Positions 1 to 10,409 of a DNA stretch of 10,409 nt are shown here, piece by piece. The DNA comes from a virus (taxonomy: Duplodnaviria; Heunggongvirae; Uroviricota; Caudoviricetes). The notes beneath the pieces were generated by a model. It made no database searches. It was not told the origin of the DNA and was given only the letters and a program-made list of their open reading frames with translations. The DNA is taken from the IMG/VR virus record IMGVR_UViG_2563366831_000007; one strand, written 5' to 3'. The position numbers and the translations under genes were made by a program. Numbering within the stretch: the first letter of the stretch is position 1; each line of letters begins with the position of its first letter.

Positions 1-26
1 GCGGCAGAAAACAACATTTTTTTCAT
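1..26 (-). CDS. 5' end of a gene continuing beyond the left edge; possible bor-like lipoprotein
   Basis: ATG at 26..24 on the minus strand, preceded by AGGA (rc of 34-37) 7 nt upstream. Reads MKKMLFSA..., which resembles the lambda Bor N-terminus (MKKML...) as I recall it. Only 8 codons are visible. Confidence 0.3.
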
Positions 27-87
27 CTTATTATCCTGCATTGTTAAAAACGGCAGAATCCTATGTGACAACAATTAAACGATAGTT

Positions 88-95
88 AAATGGAT
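88..95. repeat. Target-site duplication, left copy (AAATGGAT)
   Basis: The 8-bp AAATGGAT directly abuts the GTAAGCG terminus at 96 and recurs exactly at 2795-2802, directly after the other IS terminus. 8 bp is the TSD length typical of the IS66 family. Confidence 0.8.
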
Positions 96-2794: not shown

Positions 2795-2802
2795 AAATGG
2801 AT
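2795..2802. repeat. Target-site duplication, right copy (AAATGGAT)
   Basis: Exact copy of 88-95, abutting the IS terminus. Confidence 0.8.
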
Positions 2803-2931
2803 TGATGAAAATTAAAACTACACAGGTGAGCTCAGACGATTGGAGGGAGTTGGGGACACTCAGAATCCTGTAGAATGAAATAAACCGGTCTATCCGTCCA
2901 TTACCCTTTTAGCTGCGCTGTATCGTCGCCG

Positions 2932-2996
2932 TATTCCCGCATTAACCATGACCGTAGCCCGACGGGGAATTCCTTCTGCGTGAGTGTGCGGGAATA
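2932..2996. repeat. Perfect 10-bp inverted repeat pair (TATTCCCGCA ... TGCGGGAATA) with a 45-bp spacer
   Basis: 2932-2941 is the exact reverse complement of 2987-2996. It lies in the non-coding region upstream of the lipoprotein gene. Confidence 0.6.
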
Positions 2997-3046
2997 ATTA
3001 AAAACGATGCACACCGGGTTTTTACCGCGTTAATGATTCGCGGATT

Positions 3047-3121
3047 TATCCCGGTGCGATGGTGGAAGAAACCGGAAGCTGTATTACAGAAAGTGCTACT
3101 ACTGTATCCCGATGCGATGTA
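3047..3121. repeat. Direct repeat of a TATCCCG-containing 16-mer (TATCCCGGTGCGATGG / TATCCCGATGCGATGT)
   Basis: Two copies at 3047-3062 and 3106-3121 match at 14/16 positions. They share the TAT(T)CCCG core with the inverted repeat at 2932/2987. Confidence 0.55.
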
Positions 3122-3213
3122 TGTAATGTGAGTCAGATAATGGCACAGGATGTGGTGATGTGGCAGTCTGGAACACAGGATATATTGTCAGAATAAGACC
3201 CGTAGGAATAAAA

Positions 3214-3540
3214 ATGAAAAGACGCCTTTTACTACTTTTTCTGTTATCTGTCCTAGCAGTGGGATGCTCGCAGCAAAAAGCTGATGAGCCCCGGCAATTA
3301 GTGACGGTGTATCCACGATATCCGGAATATGCTGCAGCAAATTATATCAAGGGGCTGGTTGAGGTTAAGTTCGATATTGGTGCTGATGGGACTGTGACAC
3401 GGATCGTTTTTCTCCGCTCAGAGCCTCATAATTTGTTTCGTGATGAAGTGGTGAAGGCCATGGCGAAATGGCGATTTGAAAAGAATCGTCCCTGTCAGGG
3501 AGTGAAGAGACAATTTATCTTTACGCCGTCACGTCCCTGA
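3214..3540 (+). CDS. Small lipoprotein consisting of a TonB C-terminal-like domain (about 108 aa precursor)
   Basis: ATG at 3214 with AGGA 6 nt upstream; the track ORF begins at an upstream GTG (3160), which I consider less likely. The N-terminus MKRRLLLLFLLSVLAVG-C is a lipoprotein signal peptide with a lipobox, and Ser at +2 suggests outer-membrane sorting. The mature part aligns with E. coli TonB residues ~150-225 as recalled (YPxxAxxxxIxGxVxVKFDxxxDGxVxxxxxLxSxPxNxFxxEVxxAMxxWRxE), roughly 40% identity over ~70 aa. There is no TM anchor or Pro-rich spacer. Confidence 0.8.
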   Translation: MKRRLLLLFLLSVLAVGCSQQKADEPRQLVTVYPRYPEYAAANYIKGLVEVKFDIGADGTVTRIVFLRSEPHNLFRDEVVKAMAKWRFEKNRPCQGVKRQFIFTPSRP

Positions 3541-3569
3541 TGCTTCCAGGTAGAGAGGGGCTGGAAGCA
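3541..3569 (+). other. Stem-loop (9-bp stem TGCTTCCAG/CTGGAAGCA, 11-nt loop) directly after the lipoprotein stop codon
   Basis: Perfect inverted repeat starting at the first base after the TGA. No T-tract follows, so it is not a canonical intrinsic terminator. Confidence 0.5.
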
Positions 3570-3632
3570 GGAGAAAAATGAAAGAGCCAGCGGTTATATT
3601 TTTGTCATGGCTGACGAGGAATGATGGAAGAA

Positions 3633-3680
3633 GGCGTTGTATGCCACACAACGCCTCACTGTTCATTTCTTCTTTTTCTC
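3633..3680 (+). terminator. Candidate rho-independent terminator for the lipoprotein transcript
   Basis: 8-bp perfect stem GGCGTTGT/ACAACGCC (3633-3640, 3648-3655) with a 7-nt loop, followed by the T-rich run TCACTGTTCATTTCTTCTTTTTCTC. Confidence 0.5.
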
Positions 3681-3842
3681 TAGTGGAACCCGATGAATAA
3701 GAGTTGCACTGGTTTCCGATGAGATGGCGATATACTCGGGCAAAGTATGCTGGCAGTTTTCCAACTGGTCAAAAATACCTGCTCTCGTCTGTTGCAATGC
3801 CTGCAGCATGCGGCGGCAATGCGCCTTGCTTTTGCTAACCAT
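3663..3842 (-). CDS. Hypothetical small protein (59 aa), low confidence
   Basis: ATG at 3842..3840 preceded by a strong SD-like GAGGAAGGAAAG. Predicted sequence MVSKSKAHCRRMLQALQQTRAGIFDQLENCQHTLPEYIAISSETSATLIHRVPLEKKKK. The poly-Lys tail coincides with the plus-strand terminator T-tract, which weakens the call. The longer 117-aa version from 4016 has no SD. Confidence 0.35.
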   Translation of the reverse strand: MVSKSKAHCRRMLQALQQTRAGIFDQLENCQHTLPEYIAISSETSATLIHRVPLEKKKK

Positions 3843-3903
3843 CTTTCCTTCCTCTATCAGTCGCTGCGTGAACTCATCATGGAATACCAGGTAAATGCGG
3901 ATG

Positions 3904-4155
3904 TTATCGGTTTTGGCTACGCAGCATAGTACAAAACGGACAGGTGCATCCCGGGACGGGGGAGGCGTCACATGTCCCTGTGATGGTTGTTCCGGGTAAT
4001 GCACTGTGTGGGGCATAAAAATGTCCGATAATTTTACTTTCTACCGCAGTTAGTTGATTCGTTGGTCCTGGTAGCACATTGGGCGAGGATTTAAATGCCA
4101 GGCAACTGAAGGATGATGTTGCAAGGGAGATAGCGAGAATATTTCTGATTTTCAT
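3904..4155 (-). CDS. Hypothetical small secreted Cys-rich protein (83 aa precursor), low confidence
   Basis: ATG at 4155..4153 with GAGG 9 nt upstream. The N-terminus MKIRNILAISLATSSFSCLA looks like a signal peptide, and the C-terminus carries a Cys cluster (TGTCDASPVPGCTCPFC). No family recognised. The ORF-track version (106 aa from 4224) has an unlikely N-terminal extension. Confidence 0.35.
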   Translation of the reverse strand: MKIRNILAISLATSSFSCLAFKSSPNVLPGPTNQLTAVESKIIGHFYAPHSALPGTTITGTCDASPVPGCTCPFCTMLRSQNR

Positions 4156-4269
4156 TTGATGATGCCTCTGTGTGAAATGACGGTAAACGACGCACTTGTG
4201 CCGGCACATAATAGCAAGCACCATAATAGATCAGATTCGATTCTTGCTGTAAGTGATAATTATTCTCGT

Positions 4270-4304
4270 TTTTCGGGTCCTTTCCGGCGATCCAACAGGC
4301 TACG
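4270..4304 (+). promoter_or_regulatory. cosQ-containing region immediately upstream of cosN (approximate)
   Basis: The sequence ...GGTCCTTTCCGGCGATCCAACAGGCTACG directly precedes the cohesive-end sequence and resembles the lambda right-end sequence as I recall it. Exact cosQ limits are not determinable here. Confidence 0.5.
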
Positions 4305-4316
4305 GGGCGGCGACCT
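4305..4316 (+). promoter_or_regulatory. cosN cohesive-end sequence GGGCGGCGACCT (terminase nicking site)
   Basis: Exact match to the 12-nt lambda cohesive end. The following CGCGGGTTTTCGCTATTTATGAAAATTTTCCGG (4317-4349) matches the lambda left end as recalled. It sits 188 nt upstream of the nu1 start, against 190 in lambda. Confidence 0.9.
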
Positions 4317-4349
4317 CGCGGGTTTTCGCTATTTATGAAAATTTTCCGG

Positions 4350-4470
4350 GGAAAATCATGTCGGTACTTCTCGAACATAACTATTTGTTTTTTCTAATAT
4401 CGAATCCGTAAAAGGTCCGACATGAAAACGCCTAAAAAAGTCATTTTCGGGCACTTTCATGTCGGCCCCT
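4350..4470 (+). promoter_or_regulatory. cosB with three non-lambda R elements (R3 4352-4364 direct, R2 4417-4429 inverted, R1 4453-4465 direct) and a candidate IHF site near 4378-4390
   Basis: Three copies of (T)TTCATGTCGG are arranged direct-inverted-direct like lambda R3-R2-R1, but the repeat sequence differs from the lambda R consensus (CGTTTCC-type). The AT-rich spacer contains rc AAACAAATAGTTA, one mismatch from the IHF consensus WATCAANNNNTTR. Confidence 0.65.
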
Positions 4471-4492
4471 GTATTTATTGTGAGACTGTTTC

Positions 4493-5012
4493 ATGAAGGT
4501 TAATAAAAAGAAACTTGCCGAAATTTTCAACGTGGATCCGCGAACGATTGAACGCTGGCAGTCTCAGGGACTCCCTTGCGTCTCCGGAGGTGGTAAGGGC
4601 GTTGAATCTGTATTTGATACCGCCATGGCAATTCAGTGGTATGCGCAGAGGGAAGCTGATATCGAAAATGAAAAACTCCGTAAAGAGGTTGTGGATTACA
4701 GGGCTGCCAGTGAGGCAGATCTCCAGCCTGGGACTATTGAGTACGAACGCCATCGACTTACGCGTGCGCAGGCCGACGCACAGGAGCTGAAGAATGCCAG
4801 AGACTCCGCAGAGGTGGTGGAAACCGCATTCTGTACTTTCGTGCTGTCACGGATCGCAGGTGAAATTGCCAGTATTCTTGACGGGATCCCTCTCTCGGTA
4901 CAGCGGCGTTTTCCGGAACTGGAAAACCGACATGTTGATTTCCTGAAACGGGATATCATCAAAGCCATGAACAAAGCAGCCGCGCTGGATGAACTGATAC
5001 CGGGGTTGCTGA

Positions 5013-5038
<26 letters not shown>
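4493..5038 (+). CDS. nu1: Terminase small subunit (gpNu1-like), 181 aa, with a non-lambda N-terminal DNA-binding domain
   Basis: Same length as lambda Nu1. From about residue 66 onward ([60 protein letters not shown]...) it is near-identical to lambda Nu1 as recalled. The first ~65 aa ([36 protein letters not shown]...) diverge. It overlaps A by 26 nt, as in lambda. Confidence 0.9.
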
Positions 5039-8719
<3,681 letters not shown>

Positions 8720-8739
<20 letters not shown>

Positions 8740-10039
8740 TCTCCCGCATATTGCCAGCATGGCCTTTAATGAGCCGCTGATGCTTGAACCCGCCTATGCG
8801 CGGGTTTTCTTTTGTGCGCTTGCAGGCCAGCTTGGGATCAGTCGCCTGACGGATGCAGTATCCGGCGACAGCCTGACTGCCGGAGAGGCACCCGCGGCGC
8901 TGGCGTTATCCGGTGATGATGACGGACCACGACAGGCCCGCAGTTATCAGGTCATGAACGGCATCGCCGTGCTGCCGGTGTCCGGCACGCTGGTCAGCCG
9001 GACGCGAGCGCTGCAGCCGTATTCGGGGATGACCGGTTACAACGGCATTATCGCCCGTCTGCAACAGGCTGCCAGCGACCCGATGGTGGACGGCATTCTG
9101 CTCGATATGGATACGCCAGGCGGGATGGTGGCAGGGGCATTTGACTGCGCTGACATCATCGCCCGTGTGCGTGACATAAAGCCGGTATGGGCGCTGGCCA
9201 ACGACATGAACTGCAGTGCAGGTCAGTTGCTTGCCAGCGCCGCCTCCCGACGTCTGGTCACGCAGACCGCCCGGACAGGCTCCATCGGCGTCATGATGGC
9301 TCACAGTAATTACGGTGCTGCGCTGGAGAAACAGGGCGTGGAAATCACGCTGATTTACAGCGGCAGCCATAAGGTGGATGGCAACCCCTACAGCCATCTA
9401 CCGGGTGATGTCCGGGAGACACTGCAGTCCCGGATGGATGCAACCCGCCGGATGTTTGCGCAGAAGGTGTCGGCATATACCGGCCTGTCCGTGCAGGCTG
9501 TGCTGGATACCGAGGCTGCAGTGTACAGCGGTCAGGAGGCCATTGATGCCGGACTGGCTGATGAACTTGTCAACAGCACCGATGCGATCACTGTTATGCG
9601 TGATGCACTGGATGCACGTAAATCCCGTCTCTCAGGAGGGCGAATGACCAAAGAGACTCAATCAACAACTGTTTCAGCCACTGCTTCGCAGGCTGACGTT
9701 ACTGACGTGGTGCAAGCGACGGAGGGCGAAAACGCCAGCGCGGCGCAGCCGGACGTGAACGCGCAGATCACCGCTGCGGTTGCGGCAGAAAACAGCCGCA
9801 TTATGGGGATCCTCAACTGTGAGGAAGCTCACGGACGCGAAGAACAGGCACGTGTGCTGGCCGAACCCCCCGGTATGACCGTGGAAACGGCCCGCCGCAT
9901 TCTGGCAGCTGCACCACAGAGTGCACAGGCGCGCAGTGACACTGCGCTGGATCGTCTGATGCAGGGGGCACCGGCACCACTGGCTGCAGGTAACCCGGCA
10001 TCTGATGCCGTTAACGATTTGCTGAACACACCAGTGTAA
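8720..10039 (+). CDS. C: Head maturation protease / minor capsid protein gpC, 439 aa, GTG start
   Basis: GTG at 8720 preceded by GAGGAGGA. Translation VTAELRNLPHIASMAFNEPLMLEP... gives 439 aa, the lambda gpC length. The ORF-track start at 8585 is an upstream extension inside B. Confidence 0.92.
9434..10039 (+). CDS. nu3: Scaffolding protein gpNu3, in-frame internal start within C (201 aa)
   Basis: An in-frame ATG lies 714 nt into C, the same offset as lambda nu3 relative to C. It shares the C reading frame and stop. Confidence 0.75.
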   Translation: MDATRRMFAQKVSAYTGLSVQAVLDTEAAVYSGQEAIDAGLADELVNSTDAITVMRDALDARKSRLSGGRMTKETQSTTVSATASQADVTDVVQATEGENASAAQPDVNAQITAAVAAENSRIMGILNCEEAHGREEQARVLAEPPGMTVETARRILAAAPQSAQARSDTALDRLMQGAPAPLAAGNPASDAVNDLLNTPV

Positions 10040-10048
10040 GGGATGTTT

Positions 10049-10381
10049 ATGACGAGCAAAGAAACCTTTACCCATTACCAGCCGCTGGGCAACAGTGACC
10101 CGGCACATACGGCAACCGCGCCCGGCGGATTGAGTGCGAAAGCGCCTGCAATGACCCCGCTGATGCTGGACACCTCCACCCGTAAGCTGGTTGCGTGGGA
10201 TGGCACCACCGACGGTACTGCCGTTGGCATTCTGGCGGTTGATGCTGACCAGACCAGCACCACGCTGACGTTCTACAAGTCCGGCACGTTCCGTTATGAG
10301 GATGTGCTCTGGCCGGAGGCTGCCAGCGACGAGACGAAAAAACGGACCGCGTTTGCCGGAACGGCAATCAGCATCGTTTAA
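10049..10381 (+). CDS. D: Head decoration protein gpD, 110 aa
   Basis: ATG at 10049, 10 nt after the C stop as in lambda. [43 protein letters not shown]... matches lambda gpD as recalled. The track ORF starts 2 codons upstream at 10043. Confidence 0.93.
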
Positions 10382-10409
10382 CCTTACCCTTCATCACTAA
10401 AGGCCGCCT

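Follow-up and report, generated by a model that had tools for sequence, protein, structure and literature searches.

A lambda-like Escherichia coli prophage with probable phage 21 packaging specificity

The window, by which is meant the whole stretch of 10,409 nt that was analysed, contains a cos site followed by nu1, the gene of the terminase small subunit (TerS), and by the head genes up to D. Upstream of the cos cut, positions 2795-4304 (plus strand) form a phage-21-like right end that is 98.9% identical to OL657228 41423-42931 and includes an ORF at 3160-3540 with a Pfam TonB_C match, corresponding to a TonB C-terminal domain. A complete ISCro1-like element of the IS66 family occupies 96-2794 on the minus strand (tnpA 2064-2741, tnpB 1717-2064, transposase 126-1697) and is bordered by an 8-bp target duplication, AAATGGAT, at 88-95 and 2795-2802. 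The element separates bor from the TonB-C-like ORF and lies about 70 bp upstream of the start of the bor/iss-like gene. The insertion is clean relative to phage 21, as window positions 1-95 directly adjoin those from 2795 onward in OL657228. Late transcription of the head genes could be affected, since the element lies within the late operon of this prophage, 1.5 kb before cos. Two minus-strand ORFs, one at 4091-4378 with no Pfam match and the other at 4475-4753, antisense inside nu1, were regarded as spurious, while an Rfam search and a promoter/terminator scan of the region returned nothing above expectation.

The cosQ (R4) box is located at 4274-4285 on the plus strand and is homologous to the R4 feature of M81255 (136-147) and to the cosQ feature of OL657228. 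It includes the cosQ heptamer GGGTCCT (4275-4281) and is unvarying across lambda, phage 21, the phage IdasGreatGrand and a PICI-like island described below. The 12-nt cohesive end of cosN, GGGCGGCGACCT, lies at 4305-4316 (plus strand), is equivalent to lambda bases 1-12 and is the same in lambda and phage 21. It is followed by the spacer between cosN and R3 (4317-4349, plus strand), which equals lambda bases 13-45 and has four differences from phage 21. The spacer encompasses the conserved I2 region (4334-4348, placed by homology to the phage 21 annotation) as well as TATGAA, the counterpart of lambda bases 30-35, the replacement of which is lethal in lambda (PMC4856287). In an alignment with lambda, phage 21 and IdasGreatGrand, positions 4305-4349 (12 + 33 bp) match lambda bases 1-45 with no difference. 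Past 4349, identity to lambda drops to 45-60% per 40-bp window until approximately 4700 and then returns to 93-100%, so that the initial annotation was correct in describing a lambda-like cohesive end and about 33 bp of lambda-like sequence followed by divergence. The 12-nt cohesive end and the kept spacer, bases 30-35 included, are those of a lambda-like cos. Both cosN and cosQ have been treated as common to lambda and phage 21 (PMC4669245). Because just four of the 45 'lambda' bases differ from phage 21, the description of this element as a lambda cosN holds for its sequence but not as a diagnosis of lambda.

Exact matches to TCATGTCGG occur three times in the 10.4-kb window, at 4356-4364 (plus), 4417-4425 (minus) and 4457-4465 (plus). 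All three copies are confined to 110 bp of cosB and none is found elsewhere in the window, the chance expectation for an exact 9-mer on both strands being about 0.08 by our own arithmetic. The R cores are positioned at -136, -76 and -35 from the nu1 ATG, and the lambda cores GTTTCC, GGAAAC and GTTTCC have identical offsets and orientations, with R2 inverted. The three repeats had indeed been placed at the positions and in the orientations of lambda R3, R2 and R1 from the outset. The annotated protein-binding sites of phage 21 (R4, I2, R3, I1, R2 and R1 in M81255) were transferred to the window by alignment. The R3 box, AATCATGTCGGTACTT (4354-4369, plus strand), is homologous to M81255 216-231 with a single difference, CATGTCGG in the window versus CGTGTCGG in phage 21, a change that brings R3 into agreement with the R1 and R2 cores of phage 21. 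The inverted R2 box (4412-4427, minus strand; AAGGTCCGACATGAAA on the plus strand) is identical to M81255 273-288, and the R1 box, TTTCATGTCGGCCCCT (4455-4470, plus strand), is homologous to M81255 316-331, with an identical core and two differences in the 3' flank. Between R3 and R2, a putative IHF site, I1 (4376-4390, minus strand), is homologous to M81255 238-252 with two differences from phage 21. A one-mismatch match to the IHF consensus WATCAANNNNTTR is present at 4378-4390 on the minus strand. As a scan of the window returned such matches at chance frequency, the assignment of I1 rests on positional homology. The direct R3 and R1 boxes, the inverted R2 box and the IHF site between R3 and R2 reproduce the layout of a lambda-like cos.

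Over its whole length, cosB (4350-4492) is 79.9% identical in nucleotide sequence to phage 21 versus 52.1% to lambda. The mismatches to phage 21 are unevenly distributed, affecting 5 of 64 positions inside R3, I1, R2 and R1 versus 24 of 81 in the spacers (Fisher p=0.0014), a pattern that would be expected for constrained elements. In a BLAST search against phage records, positions 4350-4700 matched phage 21 (M81255, X02501 and OL657228) at 87.6%.

The first 64 codons of nu1 (4493-4684, plus strand) encode a winged helix-turn-helix DNA-binding domain of the phage 21 type, with 92.7% nucleotide identity to phage 21 versus 60.9% to lambda. At the protein level, 58 of the 64 residues are identical to phage 21 gp1 and just 38 to lambda, which agrees with the divergence from lambda initially noticed in the N-terminal ~65 residues. 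The domain is also identical at 50 of 54 positions to PDB 7LWR, the sequence of which is that of phage 21 gp1 residues 1-54. The ten-residue recognition helix is the same as in phage 21 gp1 and 7LWR and carries E20 and S24, as in phage 21, versus Q20 and E24 in lambda. Discrimination between lambda and phage 21 has been reported to be carried by TerS residues 20 and 24 together with R3 base pairs 56 and 59 (PMC4669245). In the window these R3 positions, given in lambda coordinates, are G and G (4360 and 4363), the phage 21 type, where lambda has T and C. At the sequence level, E20/S24 in the helix and G56/G59 in R3 are both those of phage 21 specificity. Six substitutions separate the domain from that of phage 21, four of which (V30, G32, G34 and V37) lie in the wing loop, which reads GGGKG, as in lambda/N15-like domains, versus KGSKG in phage 21.

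The remainder of the protein is of a different type. Codons 73-181 (4709-5038, plus strand) encode the lambda-type self-association and TerL (gpA)-binding part, in which 107 of 109 residues are identical to lambda and 54 of 109 to phage 21; the two changes from lambda are L132I and G181D. The 181-residue product matches Pfam Phage_Nu1 (PF07471) over profile positions 1-164 of 164 with 299.5 bits, compared with a 30-bit cut-off. A 21-type domain fused to a lambda-type C-terminus and adjoining a lambda-type TerL is the composition of the chimeric TerS of the laboratory hybrid hy51.

Gene A (5013-6938, plus strand), which encodes TerL with GpA_ATPase and GpA_nuclease domains, is lambda-type, its product having 98.8% amino acid identity to lambda and 64% to phage 21 gp2. 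Protein identity to lambda is 98.8% for A, 100% for W, 99.1% for B, 97.7% for C and 94.6% for D, while the same five proteins are 47-64% identical to those of phage 21, and every ORF from nu1 to D is intact. The near-identity to lambda that had been stated initially for nu1 after about codon 66 and for A-W-B-C-D is confirmed by these values. According to the literature, the TerS-binding part of gpA sits within its first 60 residues, which are lambda-type here apart from five substitutions. These substitutions (V8I, H13R, F14D, S21A and N37S) fall in gpA residues 8-37 (window 5034-5123), and at least the first four are common to IdasGreatGrand in a nucleotide alignment, residue 37 being beyond its range.

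The transition between the two types within nu1 occupies codons 65-72 (EVVDYRAA-S; 4685-4708, plus strand), where 21-type, lambda-type and private bases alternate. The final run of 21-type informative sites stops at 4684 and lambda-type sites start at 4687, while positions 4709-4830 are 68% identical to phage 21 and 95% identical to lambda. A joint inside nu1 had been predicted at about 4690-4720, which these sites refine to 4685-4708. Identity to lambda steps sharply at both boundaries of the divergent block, from 100% to 52% at the left and from 61% to 95% at the right. The nucleotide alignment that the initial annotation had proposed as a check, now carried out, places the breakpoint at 4685-4708 and indicates that lambda cosB and the lambda Nu1 domain do not have this sequence (52% and 61% identity, respectively). 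The solved construct of the lambda domain (1J9I, 68 residues) ends no more than a few codons away from the joint. In a protein search, the EDYRAAS/VDYRAAS patch was present only in proteins with the DNA-binding domain of the window, including frameshifted and truncated versions, and was never paired with another recognition helix. This restriction to one domain suggests that the joint arose in a single ancestral event.

At the left side, divergence from phage 21 increases from approximately 1% to approximately 12% from about 4287 onward, and the block at 4305-4684 is 88% identical to phage 21. The donor, which the first reading of the sequence had left unnamed, is therefore best described as a diverged allele of phage 21 specificity rather than phage 21 itself. 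With an identity of only 88%, at least three lineages meet at this locus: a phage 21 right end, a diverged 21-type block of cos, cosB and DNA-binding domain, and a lambda-type left arm. The lambda backbone assumed initially is confirmed for A-D but does not extend upstream of cos, where 2795-4304 is a 99% phage 21 right end. The derived mosaic could as well be lambda or phage 21, exchange being possible in either direction. PhiR47_2 (PV340567.1) has a phage-21 right end like that of the window (99.0% over 2795-4320), yet lambda-type cosB and Nu1, a mosaic that marks the cosQ/cosN region as a recurrent boundary in both directions.

The hybrid was found in 540 of 5,426 complete E. coli genomes, including O157:H7 strains, at 98-100% identity. 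The count is of genomes that cover at least 80% of a 641-bp query (4400-5040), which cannot be covered by a lambda-type or a 21-type gene. A shorter query of 201 bp across the junction (4600-4800) was unsuited, as megablast extended lambda-type matches to 82% coverage. In a whole-window search, O26:H11 11368 reached 85% coverage, and the 90%-identity protein cluster comprises 837 member sequences. Block and joint are also carried by the isolated E. coli phage IdasGreatGrand (PP925829) at 98.8-99.5% identity, so that, together with the genomes, the presumed natural occurrence of the arrangement is well founded. PhiR57_1 was considered as a second natural hybrid and rejected, as it appears 21-type through TerS and TerL, judged from annotated gene lengths alone (549 and 1929 nt, as in phage 21).

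Among natural relatives, the recognition helix and the R boxes change together on a fixed geometry, as seen in the DNA upstream of three natural TerS genes and in lambda, phage 21 and the window. The helix RTIERWQSQ occurs with TGTCGG cores (window, phage 21, L007 and L010), RTITTWQSQ with CAGATCC cores (L012) and RTIQNWQEQ with GTTTCC cores (lambda). These pairings directly support the co-variation of site and binding domain that had been proposed from the window. The chain nearest to the L012 helix is PDB 7LXS (RTVTAWQSQ), which we take to be an N15-type domain. The L012 locus, from Enterobacter, combines an N15/Monarch-like helix and three CAGATCC boxes with a lambda-type C-domain, and no TerL gene follows it.

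Protein relatives were collected with the full-length query, since a 73-residue N-terminal query returned almost only truncated or partial proteins and was silent on C-terminal partners. In P0036, a different helix is combined with a 21-type linker and a lambda-type C-domain; P0144 tracks the window to about residue 102 and continues into a third C-domain; and P0152 joins the domain of the window to a 21-type linker and a third C-domain. Judging from these proteins together with P0043, P0051, L010 and L012, lambda-like TerS seems to consist of three independently assorting modules, namely the DNA-binding domain (1-64), a linker (65-102) and a C-domain (103-181), with switches at two conserved patches of ten and eleven residues. 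Many database proteins of 234-244 aa (P0072, P0078, P0084 and others) combine Ail/Lom (PF06316) with Phage_Nu1 (PF07471), and in others Nu1 is joined to tail-terminator, gpW-like or capsid domains. Such fusions could be products of inter-prophage rearrangement or artefacts of gene calling or assembly.

P0152 is the 194-aa Nu1-like TerS of a PICI-like island of approximately 10 kb (L013 1588-11127; GCA_024125605.1 JAMXWO010000006.1) situated between cspD and clpS. The island encodes an integrase, AlpA, a D5_N/Pox_D5 primase-helicase, SSB, a lambda-E-like capsid protein and an HDPD decoration protein, followed by cos, cosB and the TerS gene, without a TerL or portal gene. Its cos block (~9810-10190) is 95.8% identical to window 4305-4684, and its TerS combines phage 21-type residues 65-100 with a C-domain of a third type, ~40% identical to lambda. 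The island suggests that the specificity block is common to phage and satellite; Gram-negative PICIs that encode TerS have already been reported (PMC6092414).

These observations make it very probable that a lambda-like E. coli prophage with phage 21 packaging specificity has its cos site and terminase small-subunit gene here. A block of approximately 380 bp (4305-4684) comprises cosN, a 21-type cosB (R3, I1, inverted R2 and R1) and a 21-type winged helix-turn-helix domain. It is flanked on the right by the lambda-type TerS C-part and the TerL, portal, protease/scaffold and decoration genes, and on the left by a right end that is 99% phage 21. The idea that packaging specificity was swapped while the gpA-binding part was kept is supported by the 21-type helix, the R-box positions and the lambda-type C-part. 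By analogy with the lambda/21 literature, the chimeric TerS dimer would bind three CATGTCGG boxes (R3, R2 and R1) via the phage 21 recognition helix, and IHF would bend the DNA at I1. The lambda-type C-terminus of TerS would then recruit the lambda-type TerL, which is predicted to nick the common cosN at unchanged spacing and to package the DNA into lambda-type proheads. As the site adjoins the domain that reads it, both would be inherited as one unit, and homologous recombination may swap this unit at conserved flanks, namely cosQ/cosN on the left and a ten-residue coding patch on the right. The precedent of hy51 and the existence of IdasGreatGrand indicate that the chimeric packaging module is likely to be functional, whereas with a cosB identity of 80% and six domain substitutions, full cross-compatibility with phage 21 is an assumption.

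The divergence from phage 21 might alternatively mean that the packaging specificity encoded by the block is a new one, neither that of phage 21 nor that of lambda. In keeping with this, cosB is 20% diverged, R3 reads CATGTCGG rather than CGTGTCGG, and four of the six amino acid differences in the domain alter the wing loop (GGGKG versus KGSKG). However, the recognition helix, the R2 box and the R1 core all equal those of phage 21, positions 56 and 59 are 21-type, the divergence is concentrated in the spacers (p=0.0014), and the altered R3 agrees with the R1 and R2 cores of phage 21, which together make a new specificity improbable. Even less probable is that illegitimate or decaying recombination left a mismatched cos and terminase as a non-functional relic in a defective prophage. 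Although the late region harbours an IS66-family element, and PMC2669165 describes many E. coli lambdoid prophages as defective, no packaging or head ORF is disrupted and all are 95-100% identical to lambda. Moreover, the same joint is found in IdasGreatGrand, a phage isolated from a plaque, 10% of complete E. coli genomes carry the block at 98-100% identity, and a laboratory hybrid of equal design, hy51, is viable. The small size of the motif is all that would favour repeats arising by chance or composition, combined with ordinary drift of the lambda Nu1 N-terminus. This possibility, which is negligible, is excluded by the alignment, the informative sites and the motif count, given that three exact 9-mers lie within 110 bp and nowhere else, that they are positionally homologous to the annotated R boxes of phage 21, and that identity changes abruptly at both boundaries.

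Beyond the preferred reading of a 21-type block in a lambda-like prophage, it may tentatively be asked whether the ~380-bp segment of cos, cosB and domain is a discrete, repeatedly exchanged 'packaging-specificity cassette' with boundaries in the conserved cosQ/cosN and ten-residue patches, a generalization that is possible but rather doubtful. On its right side the block allele has at least three partners, namely the lambda-type C-part (540 genomes and IdasGreatGrand), the C-part of P0144, and the 21-type linker with third C-domain of the island, and on its left side it also has at least three. If satellites take up the cassette to match resident helper prophages, this would constitute a helper-matching route unlike Rpp redirection, which has reportedly been described for EcCICFT073.

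A literature search of partial coverage for natural lambda/21 chimeric TerS returned laboratory hybrids only. The Feiss-type domain swap that has been used to map TerS function, in which a phage 21 DNA-binding domain is placed on a lambda TerL-binding body, also occurs naturally and commonly, including in O157:H7 and O26:H11 prophages. In annotation, the packaging specificity given to such 'lambda-like' prophages should be that of phage 21 and not that of lambda, a choice that affects predictions of cross-packaging for prophages, cosmids and satellites. No new mechanism is added, and public genomes have long contained the sequence under generic names; found in about one tenth of complete E. 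coli genomes, the hybrid is real but ordinary.

Among known systems, lambda (PDB 1J9I and 6HN7) shares with the window bases 1-45, the spacing and orientation of the R boxes, Nu1 residues 73-181 and the proteins from A through D (95-100%), but has R boxes of the CGTTTCC type and the recognition helix IRTIQNWQEQ. Phage 21 (M81255 and OL657228; PDB 7LWR) has the same layout of cosQ, cosN, I2, R3, I1, R2 and R1, an identical helix and R2 box, and a right end that is 99% identical. It differs in the C-terminal half of gp1, in gp2 (TerL) and in the head genes, which are 47-64% identical to those of the window, as well as in the cosB spacers, which are 30% diverged. Lambda and phage 21 each package their own DNA more than 1000-fold better than that of the other (PMC4669245). 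IdasGreatGrand shares the block and joint (99.5% over 4305-4684) and the lambda-type head genes (97.8% over 4274-10409), although its homology starts at about 4274, and an anti-repressor region rather than a phage 21 right end lies upstream of cosQ. The closest parallel in design is lambda-21 hy51, a viable 21-specific phage used as a helper by the Feiss laboratory, with cosB-21, a chimeric gene 1/Nu1 and lambda TerL (PMC4669245, PMC9026076). In both, cosB-21 and a 5' gene 1 domain from phage 21 are joined to the 3' TerL-binding part of lambda Nu1 and paired with lambda TerL and lambda heads, which bears out the resemblance to lambda/21 hybrid terminases noted at the start. In hy51, which was selected from a laboratory cross, approximately 600 bp of the left end were replaced, with a crossover near mid-gene, whereas in the window the crossover lies approximately 380-400 bp from the end (codons 65-72), the 21-type allele is diverged (88% identity), and the arrangement is natural and widespread. 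By sequence, the window thus carries a natural equivalent of hy51 that differs from it by its earlier crossover and its diverged 21-type allele.
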